Part shown: positions 10,539 to 32,000 of the stretch, piece after piece
Numbering within the stretch: position 1 is the first letter of the stretch
Layout: every line of letters starts with the position of its first letter
Source of the DNA: Candidatus Altimarinota bacterium
GTDB taxonomy: Bacteria > Patescibacteriota > Gracilibacteria > UBA1369
Direction of reading: 5' to 3'
Assembly: GCA_041659405.1 (NCBI GenBank)
Contig: JBAZYK010000001.1
Coordinates: 203,047-235,046 of the forward strand
DNA length: 32,000 bases
Notes under the pieces: generated by a model
The model's database searches: none
Told to the model about the DNA's origin: nothing
What the model saw: the letters and a program-made list of their open reading frames with translations, nothing else
Translations under genes and position numbers: made by a program

Positions 10539-11138
10539 ATGAGCAAAAATCCGAATTCTTCTGCTCAGGAGCAAAAACCTTCAGCGGCAAAGCGAATCGC
10601 CCTGCTTGCGGCTAAAAATGAGCGTATTTTCCACACCAAAGATTTAGCCAATTTATGGCTTATCACCAATAAAAATACGTTATACACCTTACTCAAGCGC
10701 TATACCAGATTGGGACTGCTTCATAGGATTTATAAGGGGTTTTATTCGCTTGTTCCATTGCAGGAAATTGATCCGGTTTTGATTGGCAGCAAGGCGCTTC
10801 ATCAATATTGTTATTTAAGTACGGAAACTATTCTTTATCGCGAAGGTTATATTTCGCAGAAAGTTGGTTTTTATAGTTTTATAAGCCACAAATCCGGGAA
10901 GTTTAACGTTGGAGATTCCTTTTATAAAAGTCGCCAGCTGCTTGATCAATATTTGTTTCAAACAGATGGCATTATTGATGTTGATGGGTATAAAATAGCA
11001 ACGGCTCCACGTGCCATTGCTGACATGCTCTACTTTAATTCAAGATTTCACTTTGATAAAACGGTAAATTGGAATGAAATAAAATCGCTACAGCAAAAAA
11101 TCGGCTATCCTTTTACGCCTCATCGCTATAAATCATGA
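10539..11138 (+). CDS. abiEi: AbiEi-family antitoxin (type IV TA system), winged-helix N-terminal domain
   Basis: This is a 199-aa ORF. Its N-terminal segment IFHTKDLANLW...LYTLLKRYTRLGLLHRIYKGFYSL has the AbiEi-like pattern (x-G-x-L-x-R-x-x-x-G-x-Y). It has a 4-nt ATGA overlap with the downstream AbiEii gene. Confidence 0.75.
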   Translation: MSKNPNSSAQEQKPSAAKRIALLAAKNERIFHTKDLANLWLITNKNTLYTLLKRYTRLGLLHRIYKGFYSLVPLQEIDPVLIGSKALHQYCYLSTETILYREGYISQKVGFYSFISHKSGKFNVGDSFYKSRQLLDQYLFQTDGIIDVDGYKIATAPRAIADMLYFNSRFHFDKTVNWNEIKSLQQKIGYPFTPHRYKS

Positions 11139-11872
11139 TCCTTCCCGATCCATCAGATGCAATCCATAAAGCCTGGCTCTATCGTATTTTAAGCGGGATA
11201 GCCGATGATGAATTTTTAATTTCACAACTGCGTTTTAAAGGTGGTACCTGCGCGGCTATGCGGCATATTATTGACCGTTTTTCGGTGGATCTTGATTTTG
11301 ATCTTTTGGATCAGGCAAAAGTTGAGGATGTTCGCCGGCATTTGGAAAAAATTTTCTTAAAACTGGAACTGAAAATTGATGAACAAAGTAAGCGGGTGCC
11401 TCAATATTTCCTGAAATATAAAAACAAAGCAGGTGAAAGAAATACCATGCGACTTGATGTGACCTTTCCTCCGCCAAAATCCAATGATTATGAAGCGTTG
11501 CGTTTAAATGAAATTGATCGTGTTATTTATTGCCACACCGTACCAACCATGTTCGCAAATAAACTCGTAAGCGTTATTGATCGTTATGAAAAACATGGAT
11601 CAATTGCCGGTCGTGATGTGTATGATATTCACACTTTTTTCCTGAAAGGATTTAAATATAAACCGGGAATTATCATGGAAAGAAGACAAAAATCGGCAGT
11701 GGACTTTCTGATGGAATTGCAAAAATTCATTGAAAAATATTTCACCCAAACCGTAATTGATCAGGACTTGAGTGTGCTGTTGCCACCGGCTGATTTTAAG
11801 CGCGCACGGAAAATATTAAAGCAGGAAGTTTTGATGTTTTTGACTGATGAGATCAATAATATTAACCTATGA
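11135..11872 (+). CDS. abiEii: AbiEii/AbiGii-family nucleotidyltransferase toxin
   Basis: This is a 245-aa ORF. The motif FKGGTCAAMRHIIDRFSVDLDFD matches the AbiEii GGT...R-x-S-x-D-x-D-F nucleotidyltransferase signature. It is translationally coupled to abiEi. Confidence 0.8.
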   Translation: MILPDPSDAIHKAWLYRILSGIADDEFLISQLRFKGGTCAAMRHIIDRFSVDLDFDLLDQAKVEDVRRHLEKIFLKLELKIDEQSKRVPQYFLKYKNKAGERNTMRLDVTFPPPKSNDYEALRLNEIDRVIYCHTVPTMFANKLVSVIDRYEKHGSIAGRDVYDIHTFFLKGFKYKPGIIMERRQKSAVDFLMELQKFIEKYFTQTVIDQDLSVLLPPADFKRARKILKQEVLMFLTDEINNINL

Positions 11873-17777: not shown

Positions 17778-17852
17778 TGGTGTCCTCGACAGGAGTCGAA
17801 CCTGTATTTAGCCCTTAGGAGAGGCTCGTTCTATCCATTGAACTACGGGGAC
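17778..17852 (-). tRNA. tRNA-Arg (anticodon CCU), CCA encoded
   Basis: I folded the reverse complement GTCCCCGTAGTTCAATGGATAGAACGAGCCTCTCCTAAGGGCTAAATACAGGTTCGACTCCTGTCGAGGACACCA by hand. It has a 7-bp acceptor stem with one C.A mismatch and a D arm GTTC/GAAC. The anticodon stem is AGCCT/GGGCT with loop CTCCTAA, and the T arm is ACAGG-TTCGACT-CCTGT. Confidence 0.9.
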
Positions 17853-21744: not shown

Positions 21745-21772
21745 ATTTGTGCGCGCGCACAGATTTTAATTT
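21743..21772 (+). terminator. Candidate intrinsic terminator of pgeF: GC hairpin TGTGCGCGCGCACA followed by GATTTTAATTTT
   Basis: The palindrome spans 21748-21761 and is extendable by A-T/G.T pairs. A T-rich tract follows on the plus strand only. It lies between convergent genes. Confidence 0.5.
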
Positions 21773-25729: not shown

Positions 25730-27827
25730 CGGAATGAAGAATGGTCGTTTTTTGAGCGGCTTGTTGCGCGTGCTTAATCCGGAAAGATCCTTTTTCGTGG
25801 AATCCTCCAACTTCATTCAAAATTTTGCGGCGATAAACTGCAAAACCGCCCGCTCCGCTCGCGGCAGAAACATCTTCGTCCGTGGCTGACATGCTCGCGT
25901 TTTTAGCCTGATTCAAATTCACAAAATCAAGCTTTTTGCTTTGTAAAGCCTTTACGACTTCAAAAAGGGCATCCGGTGTGAGTTCATCTTTGTTGTCCAG
26001 TAAGCCAACATAACCACCTGTCGCCAGCTTTAGAGCTTCGTTTGAAGCTTTAATAGCACCACGGTTTTTGGTCTTAAATTGGACCTTAATGCGTTTATCC
26101 ATGGCCGCATATTTTTCCAAAAGTGGTTTGATATTGGGCGCAGTTGAACCATCATCACAAATGCAAAGTTCAAAGCGATTATATGTCTGCTTTTTTACTG
26201 ACTCTATAGCTTTAACAAGCAACTCTTCCGGCACATTATAGACCGGCATGACAATGCTGATCACCGGTTTATATGAAAACATTTCCTGTTCTTTCAGTAC
26301 CAGGCCGAGGTGTTTTGGAGTGAAACCATCCGGCAAAATATTTTCGGCAGCTTCAGCCGGTTTGATTTTATTTTTGACGGAATTAAATGCTTTTTGAAAA
26401 TAATTCGCGTTGAGTTTTTTAAAAAATGCGATCACTTTCCATGATCTGGAAGCCAAAATTTCATCTAAACTTTTCTTCTGCGCTGTGGAAAGTTTTTGCA
26501 GAGAATTAAGTTCAAGATTTTTTTGATCCAAAAGTTCATTTTTTTCTTTGAGTGTTTTTTCAATATTTTGGATATGGATAATTAAAAGTTCTTTTTCCTG
26601 AAACAGGCTTTCATATTCCTGTTCTTTGGAAAACAGCTGCTTAAGAAGCTCTTCAATTAATTGTTCCCGCTCGTTGATATTATCTTTAAAATTCTGATTT
26701 TCGCTTTGAACTTCGTCCAGGGCCGCGCTTTTTTCCTGCAGTACGGCACGCAAAAACTGGATAGCCTTTTTGCAATCAAGAAGAAGACTTTCCAACTTCT
26801 GTTTTTTGGCCTCCATCTGCACAAATTCGGTCTGAGTTGAGAGACTTAATTTTTCAACCTCGGCCAGTTTTGTAACTGACAATCTGAGTTCTTTTCTTTT
26901 ACGATTAAAAAGTTTTCTGAGTTCGGTAAAAGCAAGTTTCAATAAATAGGAAAAGTTTTTTATTGAAAATTGATTGTGAGTACCAAGCGTGTTTTTGATT
27001 CTATCATGCGGAATTTCGTCATTCTTACTAATGCAATAAATGGTGCGATAAGTCGGCTCTTTAAAGTTTCCAAGCAAATCAAAATTTCTGTTGGCATATT
27101 CTTGAAAATTGCTAAATTCCTCTACCACAGGCTCGCCAAGCTTTGCACCGGACAACAATTGTTGAAGCATCCAATTGCTGATATTGCCTTCGCCGTAAGC
27201 GGTGAATTTAAGATTTTTTTCCGTCAGCCAGGTTTTAAGCTGATCTTCGTTAGGCAAGCCAAGCCGCTGATGCTCAATTAAAAGTGGATGTTGGCTACCC
27301 GCGTTTTCCAAATACTGTTGGCGAATAATATTTTCAATATTCTCGTTATAATTTTTGTAAAAAGGAGCCGCGATGATAATAAAATTATTGCTGATACGCT
27401 GCAATTCCTCTAAGGCAAGTGGACGATCGGCCTGACCCATGTGCTCCAAAAAATCCGCCGCAATCACAAAATCAAAATCGCCATCATTAAAGGGCAGTTT
27501 TTTGAAGTTGGCCTTATCTAAAACCGTAACTTGCGCGCCGGGAATATTCGCAGTTAAAAATTGCGATGTTTGGATAGCGAATTTGCCCAGATAAAGGATC
27601 TTGGAGCCGGCCGGGGCTAGAGCGGGGGCTAAAACGTCCGAGGGGATGGCCTTTGCAGCTTCAGAATTTTGAACCTGGTCAGTCTTTGCAGCTTCCGGAT
27701 CTTGAACTTGGTCAGCGATTTCCGCTTTAGGATCTTGAGCGTTCGCCAACTCCTTAGCAATCAGCGTGAAGGCAAAATTCCGGGAGTAAAGGTCTAAAGG
27801 CAGTTGATATAAATTGGTTGGTTCCAT
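25701..27827 (-). CDS. Fusion protein: N-terminal class-I methyltransferase-like domain, central coiled coil, C-terminal family 2 glycosyltransferase domain
   Basis: The N-terminal region has FDFVIAADFLEHM and VTVLD (MTase motif II and post-I), but motif I reads ILYLGKFAIQ with no GxGxG. Roughly aa 300-450 are heptad-rich in E/K/L/Q. The C-terminal ISIVMPVYNVPEELLVKAIESVKKQTYNRFELCICDDGS is a GT2 opening. Confidence 0.8.
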   Translation of the reverse strand: MEPTNLYQLPLDLYSRNFAFTLIAKELANAQDPKAEIADQVQDPEAAKTDQVQNSEAAKAIPSDVLAPALAPAGSKILYLGKFAIQTSQFLTANIPGAQVTVLDKANFKKLPFNDGDFDFVIAADFLEHMGQADRPLALEELQRISNNFIIIAAPFYKNYNENIENIIRQQYLENAGSQHPLLIEHQRLGLPNEDQLKTWLTEKNLKFTAYGEGNISNWMLQQLLSGAKLGEPVVEEFSNFQEYANRNFDLLGNFKEPTYRTIYCISKNDEIPHDRIKNTLGTHNQFSIKNFSYLLKLAFTELRKLFNRKRKELRLSVTKLAEVEKLSLSTQTEFVQMEAKKQKLESLLLDCKKAIQFLRAVLQEKSAALDEVQSENQNFKDNINEREQLIEELLKQLFSKEQEYESLFQEKELLIIHIQNIEKTLKEKNELLDQKNLELNSLQKLSTAQKKSLDEILASRSWKVIAFFKKLNANYFQKAFNSVKNKIKPAEAAENILPDGFTPKHLGLVLKEQEMFSYKPVISIVMPVYNVPEELLVKAIESVKKQTYNRFELCICDDGSTAPNIKPLLEKYAAMDKRIKVQFKTKNRGAIKASNEALKLATGGYVGLLDNKDELTPDALFEVVKALQSKKLDFVNLNQAKNASMSATDEDVSAASGAGGFAVYRRKILNEVGGFHEKGSFRIKHAQQAAQKTTILHSATNSTIRNS
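27651..27716. repeat. 33-bp tandem repeat (2 full copies plus a degenerate third to about 27745) inside the N-terminus of the 708-aa gene
   Basis: CTTTGCAGCTTCAGAATTTTGAACCTGGTCAGT (27651-27683) is followed by CTTTGCAGCTTCCGGATCTTGAACTTGGTCAGC (27684-27716). These encode DQVQ(D/N)(P/S)EAAK(T/A) repeats. Confidence 0.85.
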
Positions 27828-27906
27828 CGGGTTCAGGTAAGACTAAAAAGCACTTTTCGCTGGGCTATCATAGGGATTTACGGGCGACTAGTCAAAGCAA
27901 TCTGAT

Positions 27907-28335
27907 TTACAGTTTTAGATCTTTTAAAAGCCTGATATTTCCTTCTTTTTTAACCAATTGATAATATTTTTCGTCAGCGGTAATAAGTTCAGCATCATAA
28001 GCTTTGGCCAAAGCATGATAAGCCGCGTCATAAAAACTGATTTTGGAATATTTTGCCATAAGCCGTGAACAAATTTTCATCAAGTCTCTTTCCAGAGGGA
28101 CGACACTTATTTGTTTTTCCATCAAAGTTTCATAGGCTTTAAAAGCCAAATTTGGATCAAGCCCTTTAAGTAATTTGTTAAAAAATTCATAGGGGAAAAT
28201 ATCCGGAACGAGAATGGAAATTTCGAATTTATCCTTTAAATATAAAAGTTTTTTTACAATTTCAGCTTCCGGCTCCTGTAATATTGGCTTTAATAAAACA
28301 GAATTATCGACCACAAAAAGTTTTATATTACTCAT
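27907..28335 (-). CDS. vapC: PIN-domain toxin, VapC family
   Basis: This is a 142-aa ORF with acidic PIN residues in the usual contexts (FVVDNS, PYEF, FYDAAY, ITADEKY). It sits 3 nt downstream of the antitoxin gene. Confidence 0.85.
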   Translation of the reverse strand: MSNIKLFVVDNSVLLKPILQEPEAEIVKKLLYLKDKFEISILVPDIFPYEFFNKLLKGLDPNLAFKAYETLMEKQISVVPLERDLMKICSRLMAKYSKISFYDAAYHALAKAYDAELITADEKYYQLVKKEGNIRLLKDLKL

Positions 28336-28338
28336 AAA

Positions 28339-28590
28339 TTAATGCGATAATCGGTCTTCCCGTTGAAGTTCCACAGCTGTTTTCTTAATTTTAGGTTGAT
28401 AATGTTTGGCTATATTATCCCAAAATCCGCTTACCTCTTCTAAAGTTATGGTTTCTTTTTTTTCAAGATTTTTCTCGATCAATTCAGCAATGAATTTGCT
28501 TCTTTTGTTTTTAGGAATGTTGATTTCGAGCTTCCTAATTATAGTTTTTGGAATGGAGAAGGTTACTCTCTGAACATTTTTTAAAGCCAT
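28339..28590 (-). CDS. vapB: Ribbon-helix-helix antitoxin (VapB/CopG-like)
   Basis: This is an 83-aa ORF. The N-terminus VTFSIPKTIIRKLEINIPKNKRSKFIAELIEKNL shows an RHH pattern. It lies immediately upstream of vapC. Confidence 0.75.
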   Translation of the reverse strand: MALKNVQRVTFSIPKTIIRKLEINIPKNKRSKFIAELIEKNLEKKETITLEEVSGFWDNIAKHYQPKIKKTAVELQREDRLSH

Positions 28591-28594
28591 AAAA

Positions 28595-28649
28595 AGTTAC
28601 GTAAGTTTTATTACGTAACTATGATACTTGATTTAAAATTTATATTCAA
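28595..28649 (-). promoter_or_regulatory. vapBC promoter (TTGAAT-N17-TATCAT on the minus strand) with twin TTACGTAA palindromes as candidate operator
   Basis: On the minus strand the -35 is at 28644-28649 and the -10 at 28621-28626, with a 17-nt spacer. TTACGTAA occurs at 28597-28604 and 28611-28618 within the 10-bp inverted repeat AGTTACGTAA/TTACGTAACT, between the -10 and the vapB ATG. Confidence 0.5.
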
Positions 28650-28680
28650 GAAAAAACATATCAAGTTTTGAAATCGCGTT

Positions 28681-28843
28681 CTGTGCGCGCGCACAAGGCG
28701 GCAGACTTGTGGCCCGCCGTTATCGTACACTTTTACGCTGTTATCACGCACTTTTGTTCGTATAACAAAAAACTCCGGCACTGGAGCCTCGAATAGTGGC
28801 TTATCACCGCAGAGATGGGTCTAGGGCCTGCGATTATGCGTAC
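28681..28843. repeat. Copy A of a GC-rich non-coding structured element of about 170 nt (unknown family; candidate ncRNA, structured terminator or recombination site)
   Basis: An ungapped 124-nt core (28719-28842) matches 31166-31289 at 93 of 124 positions. It contains hairpins at 28740-28766 and 28808-28832 and the palindrome TGTGCGCGCGCACA at 28683-28696. It has no ORF, and it is GC-rich relative to the AT-rich flanks. Confidence 0.8.
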
Positions 28844-28857
28844 CTTTCTTTTCTTAA

Positions 28858-29443
28858 TTAATGATGCTTTTTGAGCTTCTCCTTTTTAGCCCTCTTTAGG
28901 TATTTCATAACTAAAGCCTTTTGATCTTTATTTGCAGCACGAACAACAGGCTTTAGCAGCTTCTTTAAATCCTTAAACGGTAATTCTAATAGTTGTGTTA
29001 GGCTCATATGAGTTTCTCTAAGGTTGTTTTACTGTACTTGAAATTCCTTTTTCATTTTTTCAACATTTTCTTTCGCATTAAAAAAAGCATCAATAAAGGC
29101 CTCTTTAGGAATATATCTGCCCTCCACTTTTTCTCTGATTTGTGTGAATTTCCATGCAATCAAAGGATCTTGGTAAATGTAGAATATCGCAACCTTTCGC
29201 CCCTTGTCCAATGATCTTTTAATATTTTTCTGATATCGTCGGGATCAATCCGTACTACTACTAATTTATTTTTTTTATAAGATTAAGTGAAAATTCCGTT
29301 TTTCCCGCACCTGGACTTCCAGCCATCAAAATAGTTGATGGATCTTCGCTAGGCCTATCACCATGAGGCGGACAAATAAAATCACTCGCAAATTTTGCAA
29401 GTAGATCTTTTGTTTCCTGTTTACAGTCTTTCCCAAAATCCAA
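28858..29443 (-). pseudogene. Zeta-toxin-like P-loop kinase/NTPase gene, disrupted by two frameshifts and one in-frame TAA
   Basis: Piece 1 (29443-29261) carries the Walker A motif MAGSPGAGKTEF. The next frame reads VVVRIDPDDIRKIL. Piece 3 (29211-29029) reads DKGRKVAIFYIYQDP...EGRYIPKEAF. The 49 codons after the TAA at 29029-29031 are in the same frame (MSLTQLLELPF...). The first frameshift sits at an A8 run (plus-strand T8 at 29269-29276). Confidence 0.65.
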
Positions 29444-29555
29444 TTTATGCGATTAACGTTTCATCCAGTTACATACCCGTTACATAAGAATTTGGCTTAA
29501 TTAGAAGGATTTATTCAATTTTCATAAAAAAGCCGAGATCCCGGTTACTTAAAAC

Positions 29556-31004
29556 TTATGCCCAAAAAGGAATATATTTGGCATGTTTTCTTTGCTCTGG
29601 ATCAATTGCCTTTATTAAACCTGCTTCAATAGTATCTGACATTATTCTTGAAGCCATTGGATAGTTATTTTCAGCGATGTTAAATCTATTTCTTAAAGAA
29701 TTATTGGTCATGGACTCATTAGAAATGTACTTTAAAACACAATGCTGATAGCAGGCACGTACCTTATCCTCCTTATTCATGCGAGTTAAATTTTGATAAG
29801 AATACAATGTTATTTTTGTAAATTTTTCTTGTGTTTGGAACTTTGGGCCAGGCAACTGATAAAGTTCAATACTGGTAATGACTTTATCTATGCCACTCCC
29901 ACGTTCTTCACAGATTTTAATCCTTCTCATAAACGCGGCCAATTCTTCATTTCTAGATTGAGGAGTATGATCAATAAATCTTTCTACACTAATCAGCGGG
30001 GCTCCAGGGTTGGTAGTTTCAATCCTGTCTTCAAAAATCTCAATTAGAGGACCTGTTCCCCTTTCGCTAAAATCTTGATGAATAAGAGCATTAGCTATAA
30101 TTTCCCTAAGCGCTATTTCAGGATACATTTTCTTCTCAATTCTTAAGGCCTTCTCAATTTTCTCATCACCGGGTAATTGGTTATTAACGTATTCAATTAA
30201 GCCAGCAAAGCCCACGGCATAGCCATTGTTGCCTTCTTGCTCTTTAATTGTTTGAACCCTGTCTTTTCCTTTGTAAATTATTACTCTTACAGATTTCCTC
30301 CTAATTGTTTCAAAATTTTTGAGATCTTTTGCAAAAAGAAGGGCACCAAGATTGGTAATATCATAATGATCAATATTCTTTTTTATTAGTTTGTCTTCTT
30401 CCATTTTTGTTAAAAATCCATTCGTATCCGATGGCAGTGGCTGATCTGTAAGGGAAAAATATCCAGAATAATCCAATAACTTTAAGACATCCTGAGGTGA
30501 TACGTTAGGTTGAGCAATTTCCTTCTCAAAACTCCTATTGCCACGGTTTAACCAAATTTTCTTTTCTTTTTCGGGAAAATCTTTAAGTTCACGAGTAATA
30601 CTGTTAATCCTCACATATCCTTTATTTTGAAACAATACCGGTCTATCAATTGCAGCAGGAACCTGGAATAAAACTATAAATTTCCCTTGGCACTCAAACT
30701 CATAAATTCTAAAATCCATTTTCGGATTGAGCATTTGAAAAATCCAATGCTCAATAAGTTCATTTCCCCTTTTTTCTTGTTTTGGTCTAAAAGTTGTTCC
30801 AACAATTTGATGGTCATGATCTTTTATTCCAAAAACCAAATAGCCAAAATCTTTTTCTAATAAATTAGCACTATTGGACAAGGCGGATATTCTCTCTCCG
30901 ATCACTTCCGGCTTATAATTATTTTCTTTAAATTCTACCCATTCGGTTTCGCTAGGATAGCTTAACAATTTCAGCAATAGCTCCTGTAATTGAAGAAGAT
31001 CCAT
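29556..31004 (-). CDS. AlbA_2 (Schlafen-like divergent AAA) N-terminal domain protein with a C-terminal HATPase_c_4/RecG-C-like region and winged helix; putative DNA-binding regulator
   Basis: This is an intact 482-aa ORF. The N-terminus SETEWVEFKEN...ISALSNS...GYLVFGI is AlbA_2-like. The C-terminus LREIIANALIHQDF...IEIFEDRIETTNPG...SRNEELAAFMRR...EERGSGIDKV is HATPase_c_4-like. Confidence 0.85.
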   Translation of the reverse strand: MDLLQLQELLLKLLSYPSETEWVEFKENNYKPEVIGERISALSNSANLLEKDFGYLVFGIKDHDHQIVGTTFRPKQEKRGNELIEHWIFQMLNPKMDFRIYEFECQGKFIVLFQVPAAIDRPVLFQNKGYVRINSITRELKDFPEKEKKIWLNRGNRSFEKEIAQPNVSPQDVLKLLDYSGYFSLTDQPLPSDTNGFLTKMEEDKLIKKNIDHYDITNLGALLFAKDLKNFETIRRKSVRVIIYKGKDRVQTIKEQEGNNGYAVGFAGLIEYVNNQLPGDEKIEKALRIEKKMYPEIALREIIANALIHQDFSERGTGPLIEIFEDRIETTNPGAPLISVERFIDHTPQSRNEELAAFMRRIKICEERGSGIDKVITSIELYQLPGPKFQTQEKFTKITLYSYQNLTRMNKEDKVRACYQHCVLKYISNESMTNNSLRNRFNIAENNYPMASRIMSDTIEAGLIKAIDPEQRKHAKYIPFWA

Positions 31005-31117
31005 AATTCTATGCTTATAAAATATTTTTTTGCGCTCAGTTCGCTGCTCAGTTTAATCCATCCACATTACAAAATTCTAAACGGATTGTGAAATCGACAT
31101 AAAATCGTTGAGTCTAT

Positions 31118-31290
31118 CTGTGCCCGTGCACAGGGCAGCAAACTTGTGCCCGGGCACAGAGTTCCGTTATTGTGCGCCATTACGCTGTTATTGCGCACTT
31201 TTGTTCGCATAATAAAAAACTCCGGTGGCGGGGCCTCGAACGGTGGCTTACTGCCGCGGAGGTGGATTTTGCCGCGAGAATTATGCGTAT
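31118..31290. repeat. Copy B of the GC-rich structured element of about 170 nt
   Basis: See copy A. The hairpins are at 31187-31213 and 31255-31276, and there are two TGTGC...GCACA palindromes (31118-31133 and 31145-31158). The overlapping ORFs (79 aa minus, 61 aa plus) have no counterpart in copy A. Confidence 0.8.
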
Positions 31291-31365
31291 TCACCCTCTT
31301 TTTCAACTACCGAGAATTCCTCGATAGTTGATTTTTGATCAACCTCATTGGTGGAGTTGCAGCTT

Positions 31366-31872
31366 TTAAAATATTCTAGCCGCTTCCTCTAAAGCGGATG
31401 TAATAATTTTCTTAAGATCGTCATAATAGCCTTTATCCGCTGAGTTAAGTGCTTTTACATATTTGGTCCGTCCTGATTTCGTCTCTATTTTCAGTTCAAT
31501 AGGCGGAAGATCCAAGTTAAGCAAAATCATATTTATAAGCAGTCTACCTATTCTTCCATTGTAATCCACGAAAGGATGGATCCAGAGGAATCGATGATGC
31601 GCCCAAGCTAAAATCAGGGATCAGGTCGGATCGACCAATAATTCCGAAAGCGGTCTCTTTGTAAGTGGTTTCTCCCTGTTTTTTCCTTAAAATCATTTGC
31701 TCGCAAGCTTATGAAGAATTTTCCTTACCATCAGTGGTGTTGTTTGAGCATTCTCGGTTTTTGTCGTTCTGTAAATCATCTTTATTTCAAAATTATTGAG
31801 ATACGTCTGACGTTCTTTTTTTTGAGCTTTTTGATAATTCTTGAAAGCATGTGCGATTTTTGCCAGTTTCAT
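31366..31872 (-). pseudogene. Fic/DOC-family gene split into three reading frames
   Basis: The Fic motif is read on the minus strand: AHHRFLWIHPFVDYNGRIGRLLINMIL. An in-frame TGA lies 13 codons upstream of the H of HPF. An upstream piece in another frame (ATG at 31696) reads MILRKKQGETTYKETAFGIIGRSDLIPD. A 59-codon piece (31872-31693, MKLAKIAHAF...) ends in an ATGA overlap. Confidence 0.6.
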
Positions 31873-31904
31873 AATATTATAGTTAAATCAAAATGATTAT
31901 ATCA

Positions 31905-32000
31905 GAAAGCGTTTTTGTTTAAAATAAGAAGTCCGGGGGCACTGGATCCGCCCGGTTTAATCCACGCACAGTAAAATTCTACGTCAACGTGACGCTCTAC
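31905..32000. repeat. Possible third, diverged and left-truncated copy of the structured element, running off the window end
   Basis: GCGTTTTTGTTTAAAATAAGAAGTCCGGGGGCACTGGATCC aligns with copy A GCACTTTTGTTCGTATAACAAAAAACTCCGGCACTGGAGCC. Downstream, ATCCACGCACAG aligns with ATCACCGCAGAG. The similarity is moderate and the copy is incomplete. Confidence 0.35.

Follow-up and report, generated by a model that had tools for sequence, protein, structure and literature searches.

A hairpin-rich, somewhat conserved non-coding element repeated between toxin–antitoxin and defence modules of a Gracilibacteria islet

The attC sites of sedentary chromosomal integrons, such as the Vibrio cholerae repeats, are direct repeats of 120-180 nt, richer in G+C than their surroundings, that stand between short modules in which toxin–antitoxin genes abound, and they fold better, each as one bulged hairpin, on the strand complementary to the genes. 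In an integron array a site comes after each promoterless cassette, and the integrase gene intI lies beside the array together with attI and Pc, except in CALINs. REP and BIME sequences are G+C-rich imperfect palindromes located between genes at gene ends, where they may terminate transcription or protect 3' ends and can act as recombination substrates; REPs are units of about 35 nt; tens to hundreds of them lie dispersed, in either orientation, and they have a cognate RAYT transposase. In accretion arrays of the CIME kind (attL, internal att and attR), the internal sites have a common arm type, the terminal arm is continuous with the empty site, and the modules between copies vary among related genomes. 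Intrinsic terminators, finally, consist of a G+C-rich stem followed by a run of U. To our knowledge, almost nothing has been learned about regulation or genome plasticity in Gracilibacteria. Here we describe an element of about 175 nt in the genome of a member of Candidatus Gracilibacteria (candidate phyla radiation; genetic code 25) that has points in common with each of these systems. It is non-coding, rich in hairpins, somewhat conserved and repeated between the modules of one islet.

The window that we analysed is a stretch of 32,000 nt. The copies lie in an islet of about 5 kb whose toxin–antitoxin and defence modules all read on the minus strand; it is flanked by a glycosyltransferase gene and a gene for a glycine-rich secreted protein. 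The islet reads, in order, copy C, Phd-Doc, copy B, AlbA_2, zeta pseudogene, small ORF, copy A and RHH-PIN, and the copies stand in direct orientation at module boundaries. Between C and B, the Phd-like and Doc/Fic-like module (31366-31872) shows the motif HPFVDYNGR when translated with code 25; it is missing from a sister species (locus L005). The AlbA_2/HATPase_c_4 gene downstream of copy B (29556-31004) is also missing from L005, and its junctions carry no copy of the element. The small ORF and the frameshifted zeta-toxin pseudogene occupy 28858-29452, where Pfam Zeta_toxin matches two fragments; in L005 the zeta-toxin gene is intact and encodes 229 aa. We considered that the pseudogenes might be artefacts of translation with code 11; code 25 does join the Doc-like fragment, yet the zeta gene remains frameshifted. 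Downstream of copy A lies a module of an RHH-like antitoxin and a PIN toxin (27907-28590; Pfam PIN, E=5e-15), with the promoter TTGAAT-17-TATCAT and a palindromic operator at 28596-28619. Each module carries a separate promoter that lies downstream of the element. Cumulative GC skew reaches its maximum at the islet; because the skew here tracks gene orientation, no replication terminus can be inferred from this peak.

Two direct copies of a GC-rich element had been proposed from a sequence-only reading, and both a repeat search (28717-28842 versus 31164-31289, 75% identity) and blastn (E=1e-17) recovered them. The hand count reported for the gapless block, 28719-28842 against 31166-31289, is exact at 93 of 124 identities. 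When one 10-nt indel is allowed, the similarity reaches left to 28676 and 31113; it does not continue into the flanking ORFs. Copy A (28676-28848; nhmmer E=3e-53; 172.9 bits with a covariance model), with the small ORF/zeta-toxin pseudogene on one side and the RHH-PIN module on the other, has lost 10 nt of the left hairpin. Copy B (31113-31295; E=5e-60; 208 bits) is the most complete and separates the Phd/Doc-like module from the AlbA_2 gene. Copies, cores and end motifs are given here without a strand. The copies contain 53-55% G+C against 27-37% in their flanks, in agreement with the initial description, as is the palindrome CTGTGC-N4-GCACAR at the start of both. In copy A, the palindrome CTGTGCGCGCGCACAA at the left end (28681-28696) has lost its partner arm with the 10-nt deletion. 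In copy B, the left hairpin (31118-31159, plus strand) contains CTGTGC-N4-GCACAG and TTGTGCCCGGGCACAG as palindromes in tandem; long-range pairing between them, over 16 base pairs, is also possible. The right-end motif of B, ATTATGCGTA (31280-31290), is an inverted repeat of CGCATAAT at 31206-31213; the corresponding pair in copy A is 28833-28843 against 28759-28766.

A third full copy, D, occupies the same position in the sister species (L005), so that three full copies are known, in two genomes. A degenerate copy, C, starts at 31930 and is cut by the window end at 32000; in locus L001 it runs to about 32055. It was recognized by nhmmer (E=1e-14 to 1e-16) over model positions 94-183 and retains the right half and the promoter-proximal part, whereas the core of about 150 nt, deleted between two short internal direct repeats, is missing. 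Copy D is a mosaic: its right part resembles C (90-100%) and its core resembles B (95-100%). The internal copies A and B have one type of right half and the terminal copies C and D another, and the right ends of C and D are homologous to an empty site in locus L010. Beyond the copy itself, B and D remain homologous for about 60-110 nt more towards the downstream gene (blastn, L005 3674-3892 versus window 31271-31053, 81.5%). This includes an AT-rich extension of B (31053-31112, minus strand) that reaches towards the AlbA_2 start and is homologous to the region downstream of D, to part of C and to a remnant in locus L012.

No coding function emerged, as the first reading had concluded. The A/B differences fall 12/8/11 by phase, with no 3-nt periodicity, the indel in A shifts the frame, and six-frame translations of A, B and D matched nothing among 5.8 billion proteins. 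One reading frame deserved separate consideration, a minus-strand ORF of 47-49 codons that begins at the ATG of ATTATGCG, is open in B and D with a common end, and has GGAG 9 nt upstream of the ATG. That it encodes a small protein has almost no chance of being right: B and D differ 5/9/8 times at codon positions 1/2/3, without an excess at the third position, 12 of 47 residues differ between them, A has ATA in place of the ATG, and its 10-nt deletion shifts the frame.

The element also belongs to no family that we could recognize, again as first proposed. At the gathering threshold, Rfam 15 gave a single match in the whole window, a tRNA at 17781-17852, and none on the element; permissive scans of 28550-32000 and of L005 3450-4000 gave chance matches only (E above 0.5), and ARAGORN found nothing. 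No further copy is present in about 43 kb of this genome (the window and 10 kb to its left) or in the related loci. With A, B and D as its input, a covariance model matched nothing else in 98 kb, and an nhmmer search of the same sequence set with the element profile gave no members beyond A-D. Searches for exact core patterns gave chance matches only in GTDB species genomes (in Myroides) and in JGI metagenomes, and chance matches or none in IMG/VR; blastn against plasmids and phages found no copy. All copies found in the ~43 kb and in the related loci lie in the islet, unlike the many dispersed copies of a REP, BIME or MITE. The element is like REP and BIME in being a G+C-rich imperfect palindrome at gene ends, but it is a 175-nt composite, restricted to one islet and one orientation. 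The termini do not suit a MITE either: the CTGTGC... of the left end has no inverted counterpart in the ...ATTATGCGTAC of the right end, and the alignments show no duplication of flanking sequence. A LexA operator was considered as well; CGAACAAAAGTGCG fits the Gram-positive SOS box at 9 of 10 positions, but the window is not enriched in such sites, and the palindrome of the host lexA promoter, GGTGAG-N6-CTCACC, is missing from the element.

The reading that we favour, tentatively, is that the element is a spacer, duplicated locally, with a role in cis at the boundaries between modules. On this view a lineage-restricted, quasi-palindromic non-coding sequence, originally the islet's own intergenic DNA, spread through local duplication and recombination and may have been kept for its action in cis. 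This is supported by its confinement to the islet, by the modules' own promoters downstream of it, by the homology of the right ends of C and D to the empty site in L010, by the mosaic copies and the deletion in C, by a core conserved above the neutral rate, and by a terminator-like hairpin of the same palindrome type elsewhere in the window, between convergent genes at 21747-21762. A three-way alignment of A, B and D delimits a 42-nt core that is nearly invariant in copies otherwise about 75-80% alike. In A it is CGCTGTTATnnCGCACTTTTGTTCGnATAAnAAAAAACTCCG (28736-28777), which includes hairpin 1 (28740-28766) and an A6 run; in B it lies at 31183-31224, with hairpin 1 at 31187-31213 and again the A6 run. 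Past this run, the first 28 nt are identical in B and D. Over 96 nt the B and D cores are 88.7% identical, whereas 4-fold degenerate sites in the orthologous genes reach 68-77%, with neutral identity put at about 74-76% (binomial P of about 2e-4 to 2e-3), a comparison made on one species pair.

The same conservation bears on the possibility, which we judge unlikely, that the copies are functionless, decaying segmental duplicates in which apparent compensation arose from quasi-palindrome mutation and not from selection. Signs of decay do exist: C has lost its core, A has the 10-nt deletion and no folding signal, and the family is restricted to a single islet. Between two strains, 8.5 kb contains just 6 differences. 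Every one of them falls within 42 nt of copy C, and several generate complementarity to sequence about 60 nt away. Such a pattern is the product of template switching, a mechanism reported to give rise to hairpins and preserve them in the absence of selection (bioRxiv 10.1101/2021.04.15.439925). A compensatory change suspected in the outer stem of C was rejected, since the part concerned is homologous to the promoter-proximal region and not to the core. Against decay stand a B-D core more conserved than 4-fold sites, 53-55% G+C kept within a background of 36-40%, and the near invariance of the 42 nt in three copies that have diverged elsewhere.

If the spacer does act in cis, its two halves may do different things. 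On the gene strand, the right half is like an intrinsic terminator in having a G+C-rich closing stem followed by U6, and this CUCCG/CGGAG-closed hairpin with its U6 could serve to generate the upstream module's 3' end or to shield it. The long imperfect hairpin of A (CTCCG...CAGAG; 28773-28814, minus strand) has a predicted energy of -13.4 kcal/mol, with U6 after it on the gene strand, and a terminator scan matched A at 28790-28769 on the minus strand. Its counterpart in B (CTCCG...CGGAG; 31220-31261, minus strand) is preceded on the plus strand by A6, so that the minus strand reads U6 behind the hairpin, and 80% of its cells are paired across copies. In B and D, the 42-nt hairpin with U6 is predicted at -14.6 and -14.9 kcal/mol (z -1.4 and -1.9). 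A, B and D all have exactly the same CGGAG-T6 junction; in C and D the interior of the hairpin has been swapped for a different hairpin while the closing stem was retained. The left half contains conserved inverted repeats, namely two TGTGC-N4-GCACA palindromes and a CGCAC-TTTT-GTTCG hairpin with GTTAT repeats. We infer that these, lying upstream of the next module's promoter, may constitute a regulatory site that is read at the protein or nucleic-acid level. The copies might in addition supply the homology for deletions and rearrangements that reshuffle the islet. Several observations weaken this interpretation. On the minus strand the predicted hairpins are weak, at -13 to -15 kcal/mol (z -0.7 to -1.9); the terminal copy (C, D) has no upstream minus-strand gene to terminate; and the plus strand, which is antisense to the genes, gives the better fold for both the left hairpin and the element as a whole. 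Compared with intrinsic terminators, too, the hairpin is long (42 nt), irregular and weak (z in the same range), makes up a quarter of a conserved element, and in the terminal copy has no gene upstream.

The folding preference raises the alternative that the plus strand gives rise to a structured small RNA, about 190-240 nt long and antisense to the islet genes; its targets would be the neighbouring toxin–antitoxin or defence transcripts, or a protein. We regard this as rather improbable, although plus-strand folding far exceeds that of shuffled sequences in B (-78.2 kcal/mol, z -3.87), in D (z -2.60) and in a weakly related region of L012 (z -2.70), with weaker signals on the minus strand (z -1.83, -0.39 and -1.66, respectively). 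The left hairpin folds well on the plus strand only: in B it reaches -30.9 kcal/mol (z -5.4) on the plus strand against -25.0 on the minus strand, and in D -22.2 (z -3.2) against -13.0 (z -0.5), so that in D it survives on the plus strand alone, where C-to-U changes keep G-U pairs. A G+C content well above the AT-rich setting, a core conserved above the neutral rate, and a plus-strand hairpin with ATTTTTG behind it, 14 nt past copy B, also fit a small RNA. On the other hand, that last hairpin pairs better on the minus strand, and A folds no better than shuffles on the plus strand (z +0.14; -1.13 on the minus strand) and has lost one arm of its left hairpin. No canonical plus-strand promoter lies upstream, in a genome whose promoters are clear (TTGAC-17-TATrAT), and there are three full copies only. 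The G-U and A-C cells of the right domain are balanced. The G-T wobbles of B that the sequence-only reading had taken to be tolerated on the plus strand alone are offset by A-C positions in A, which would be minus-strand wobbles (12 versus 10 outside B). The minus-strand promoter signals suggested in the same reading did not hold up: their -35 hexamers lie outside the conserved sequence and failed the scan criteria, D has no -35, and the region holds no more promoter-like matches than chance predicts (13 found, 13.0 expected).

Covariation is likewise without statistical support, which counts against a structured RNA. The RNAalifold covariation term was +1.24 on the plus strand and +0.13 on the minus strand, values near zero or positive that leave it unsupported on both. 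The number of compensatory pairs, 4, was reached in 66 of 500 shuffles, and the covariation score in 61 of 500, using an alignment of 3-5 sequences in which the left ~20 columns of two C rows (helix 1) are not homologous. The claim that hairpins preserved by compensatory changes define a structured family therefore fails on covariation, and also on homologues, which amount to one full copy in the sister species and one deleted copy, with nothing further from the covariance-model search. At hairpin 1, one exchange of A-T for G-C does stand, but the other change turns G-C into G-T. At hairpin 2, the 3' arms CTGCG (A) and CCGCG (B) lie 3 columns apart in the gapless alignment, so the exchange is not at homologous positions, and the hairpin itself is missing from C and D. 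Nothing in the analysis marks the element as a new RNA family, and "compensatory" changes between the hairpins of two copies should not count as evidence for a structured RNA.

Direct repeats that separate modules rich in toxin–antitoxin genes also invite a comparison with recombination sites. The element could be the site of a cassette array, attC-like or a phage-type att with arm repeats, at which modules would enter and leave, beside the glycine-rich gene, through a recombinase encoded elsewhere. We think this distinctly unlikely. The better-folding strand is complementary to the module genes, as are the bottom strands of attC sites; the C/D type of right half, as opposed to the A/B type, continues into the empty-site sequence of L010; D combines C-like and B-like parts, and Phd-Doc, between C and B, is missing in L005; and CGCATAAT-like motifs were read in the sequence four times per copy. 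Yet the mosaic D can equally be explained by homologous recombination between repeats, the copies are only ~75% alike with no exact core common to the junctions, and the last module, RHH-PIN, has no site. Phd-Doc is bounded by C and B, but AlbA_2 and the A-RHH-PIN segment have their breakpoints elsewhere; these and HicAB pairs were gained or lost at junctions free of the element. A search for recombinase domains, covering the window, 10 kb to its left and the L005, L010 and L012 flanks, with the right flank reaching 1.3 kb past the window, found no integrase or recombinase in ~43 kb of the genome or in those flanks.

With regard to particular site types, a canonical attC was rejected. A RYYYAAC...GTTRRRY pair at 35-135 nt spacing does not occur on either strand of 27800-32000, which leaves the element without R''/R' core sites. 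In addition, the predicted folds are three or four separate hairpins over ~175 nt, including an 80-nt right domain with a very asymmetric junction of 6 nt against 19 nt, and not the one imperfect hairpin of 57-141 nt, with its R and L boxes, extrahelical bases and variable end structure, that marks an attC. A Xer/dif site (28 bp, as in IMEX and pdif modules) was rejected as well; CGCATAAT resembles a XerC arm, but there is no TTATG partner arm 6 nt away, the element has no dif-like 11-6-11 site, and the dif-like pattern occurs in the window at chance level (48 matches versus 46 expected). The element is thus like sedentary-integron attC sites in length, direct orientation, G+C content, separation of modules and strand preference of folding, but differs in lacking RYYYAAC/GTTRRRY, in its several hairpins, in having three or four copies only and no integron integrase within reach, and in that the islet modules have promoters and turn over also at repeat-free junctions. 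It is similarly like CIME-type arrays in its common internal arm type, its terminal arm continuous with the empty site and the variation of its modules among related genomes, but unlike them in having neither an integrase, nor an exact duplicated core, nor a counterpart at the far end of the islet, and in copies diverged to the ~75% level. An integron-like site that folds from the strand complementary to the cassette genes, without similarity to attC and served by a recombinase elsewhere, is very improbable indeed; it would mean that cassette arrays evolved independently of IntI.

Should the core of this duplicated spacer act in cis, it would rank among the rare documented instances where the tiny genome of a Gracilibacterium carries a conserved non-coding signal, and the islet would also be a small hot spot of turnover of toxin–antitoxin and defence genes. 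Its practical value is limited for now, since only three full copies are known, in two genomes.

The repeat is real, non-coding, rich in hairpins and somewhat constrained. Because the host belongs to Candidatus Gracilibacteria, TGA is read as glycine, and ORFs were re-derived with code 25. The window is chromosomal (mutS, mutL, alaS, miaB, enolase, metK and ahcY are present, and lexA lies just left of it). Copies A and B sit in an islet of toxin–antitoxin and defence genes that runs from 27828 to about 33070, with every gene on the minus strand. By coordinate, the order is a PIN gene with an RHH-like antitoxin (27907-28590), copy A, a small ORF with a frameshifted zeta-toxin gene (28858-29452), an AlbA_2/HATPase_c_4 gene (29556-31004), copy B and a Doc/Fic-like plus Phd-like pair (31366-31872). 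An overlapping contig with the Phd-like protein extends 1.3 kb beyond the window end; on it lie a degenerate third copy, C, and then a plus-strand gene for a glycine-rich secreted protein.

A repeat search of the window returned 28717-28842 and 31164-31289 as a 75% direct repeat. Recounting the gapless block proposed in the sequence-only reading (28719-28842 versus 31166-31289) gave exactly the claimed 93/124 identities, the differences being 23 transitions and 8 transversions. When one 10-nt indel is allowed, the similarity spans 28676-28848 and 31113-31295; aligned to each other by blastn, A and B score E=1e-17. The supposed GC-richness was borne out, with a G+C content of 53-55% in the element, 27-37% in 200-nt flanks and 36% in the islet, as was the lack of 3-nt periodicity (A-B differences split 12/8/11 over the three phases). 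A minus-strand ORF of 47-49 codons behind GGAG, common to B and to copy D of the sister species, was rejected as coding: B-D differences fall 5/9/8 by codon position, and in copy A ATA replaces ATG and the frame is shifted, in agreement with the non-coding nature claimed earlier.

On the plus strand, the element opens with a left hairpin (31118-31159 in B) of two tandem palindromes with TGTGC half-sites, which can also pair with each other as a 16-base-pair hairpin; a 10-nt deletion removed one arm in copy A. A GTTAT...CACTTTT unit then occurs twice, about 20 nt apart, the second being hairpin 1, GTTATyrCG[CACTTTTGTT]CGyATAAy. An invariant A6 run lies 3' of hairpin 1, followed by an imperfect 42-nt hairpin with closing stem CTCCG/CGGAG, and the right end is formed by ATTATGCGTA, an inverted repeat of CGYATAAY. 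Across A, B and D a core of 42 nt, CGCTGTTATnnCGCACTTTTGTTCGnATAAnAAAAAACTCCG, hardly varies, and in B and D homology goes on for about 60-110 nt more towards the downstream gene. The right halves are of two types, one in A and B and the other, with a different inner hairpin, in C and D, where the right end runs on into sequence common with the empty site of the related locus L010. Elsewhere in the window, TTGTGCGCGCGCACAG (21747-21762) differs very little from the left-end palindrome of copy A; placed between two convergent genes, with ATTTTAATTTT after it, it resembles a terminator hairpin. Another hairpin, 14 nt right of copy B (31304-31330), has a perfect 12-bp stem on the minus strand (-17.5 kcal/mol) with no U run behind it, and on the plus strand one mismatch followed by ATTTTTG.

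Three related loci were reached by synteny, through homologues of a glycosyltransferase encoded beside the islet. The sister-species locus, L005 (76% amino-acid identity to the window in the glycosyltransferase, 94-97% in AhcY and MetK, 68-77% at 4-fold sites), has a single full copy, D, at L005 3650-3832. It lies upstream of an intact zeta toxin, with the glycine-rich gene as its neighbour. Only the palindrome GTGTGCCCGGGCACAG and a promoter-proximal stretch remain in the more distant relative L012, and L010 is without the islet. The proposed covariance-model search, run with a model of A, B and D and also with nhmmer, recovered no further copies in about 98-190 kb including 10 kb left of the window. 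Only chance matches, or none, came from pattern scans of species genomes, JGI metagenomes and viral contigs, from blastn searches of plasmids and phages, and from a six-frame pseudo-protein search. Within the sequence searched, the repeat is thus restricted to a single islet, shared by two sister genomes. Core identity between B and D is 88.7% over 96 nt and 84.5% over 161 nt (binomial P = 2e-4 to 8e-3 against neutrality, by region and neutral rate used). Since this exceeds identity at the 4-fold sites of orthologous genes, the core is probably functional, with a level of constraint similar to that seen in regulatory intergenic DNA elsewhere between these two species (92% beside the glycine-rich gene). 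Set beside this conservation, it appears unlikely that the copies are simply decaying duplicates, a reading that would fit the lost arm of A and the core of C, deleted between two short internal direct repeats.

Rfam matched the element to no known family, just as the sequence-only reading had found no pattern that fitted; its sole hit in the window is a tRNA outside the element, and permissive scans gave chance-level matches only. The compensation claimed for hairpin 1 stands as one A-T to G-C exchange beside one G-C to G-T change, but it is a single event, D being identical to B there. That claimed for hairpin 2 falls away, its columns not being homologous and the hairpin missing from C and D, and the RNAalifold covariation terms (+1.24 and +0.13) did not sustain covariation. 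Of the right-domain cells, 75% pair in register and 33-53% with partners slid, but the structure tested was derived from copy B, and the ~20 leftmost columns of both C rows later proved non-homologous; the observed count of compensatory pairs was reached by 66/500 shuffles. Over the whole element, folding was better on the plus strand for B and D, not for A, and D keeps a stable left hairpin on that strand only (-22.2 plus vs -13.0 kcal/mol minus). Outside B, G-U and A-C cells are in balance (12 vs 10). A plus-strand small RNA would suit the folding of B and D, less so that of A and this balance, and we consider it improbable. Hairpin-forming potential, as modelled, is conserved and leans to the plus strand, without statistical support; judged by further homologues and supported covariation, as the earlier reading itself asked, a new structured RNA family is not established.

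Copy D is a mosaic, its right part 90-100% like C and its core 95-100% like B. L005 lacks Phd-Doc, AlbA_2 and the A-RHH-PIN segment of the window genome or has them truncated; of these, only Phd-Doc is bounded by element copies. HicAB pairs in L005 and L012 lie on the other side of the glycosyltransferase gene with no element nearby. Module turnover thus occurs both at the element and away from it, which speaks against a dedicated system for cassette recombination. An att-like recombination site, to which the bounding of Phd-Doc might point, is thus very unlikely, the more so as canonical attC and dif features were not found in the element and no recombinase gene lies within reach in the window and neighbouring sequence examined. 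We tentatively favor, as the most likely reading, a locally duplicated boundary element acting in cis. On the gene (minus) strand it would supply a hairpin and U6, its conserved palindromic core would lie upstream of the next module's promoter, and its copies may double as recombination substrates.

The HicA/HicB pair (L005 7135-7659 and L012 3908-4432), absent from the window genome, lies between the glycosyltransferase and AdoHcyase genes; these insertions and an AbiEii pair (window 10539-11872) show that toxin–antitoxin genes turn over often, and at several intergenic sites. Comparison of two strains, each from a different sample, gives only 6 differing positions in 8.5-9.2 kb, and 6/6 fall within 42 nt of copy C (chance about 2e-11), at 1301-1342 of L001, which runs past the window end (window-equivalent about 32001-32042), compared with 77-118 of L002 and L007. 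Through several of the changes the window lineage gained complementarity to GCACAGTAAAATTC, which lies some 60 nt away, and the patch looks like a template-switch or gene-conversion event in a quasi-palindrome.

The zeta-toxin gene (29029-29452) is frameshifted even under code 25 and intact in the sister species (229 aa, L005 3935-4624); in both genomes a 45-49-codon ORF comes after it, with no epsilon-type antitoxin upstream in that role. A perfect inverted repeat, GTTACGTAA-N6-TTACGTAAC (28596-28619), separates the predicted promoter of the RHH-PIN operon from the operon's start and is a likely autoregulatory operator of the antitoxin. The glycosyltransferase promoter, TTGACT-N17-TATGAT (27867-27895, minus strand), is kept in 4/4 genomes (window, L005, L010 and L012) and, together with the lexA promoter, indicates canonical sigma-70-type promoters in these Gracilibacteria. 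The lexA gene encodes LexA_DNA_bind and Peptidase_S24 domains. In its promoter region (6793-6850 of L015, the sequence left of the window, some 1.2 kb from the window start), TTGAC and TATAAT enclose a perfect palindrome, GGTGAGCGTATACTCACC, a candidate SOS box of this Gracilibacterium that is unlike known Gram-positive or proteobacterial boxes.
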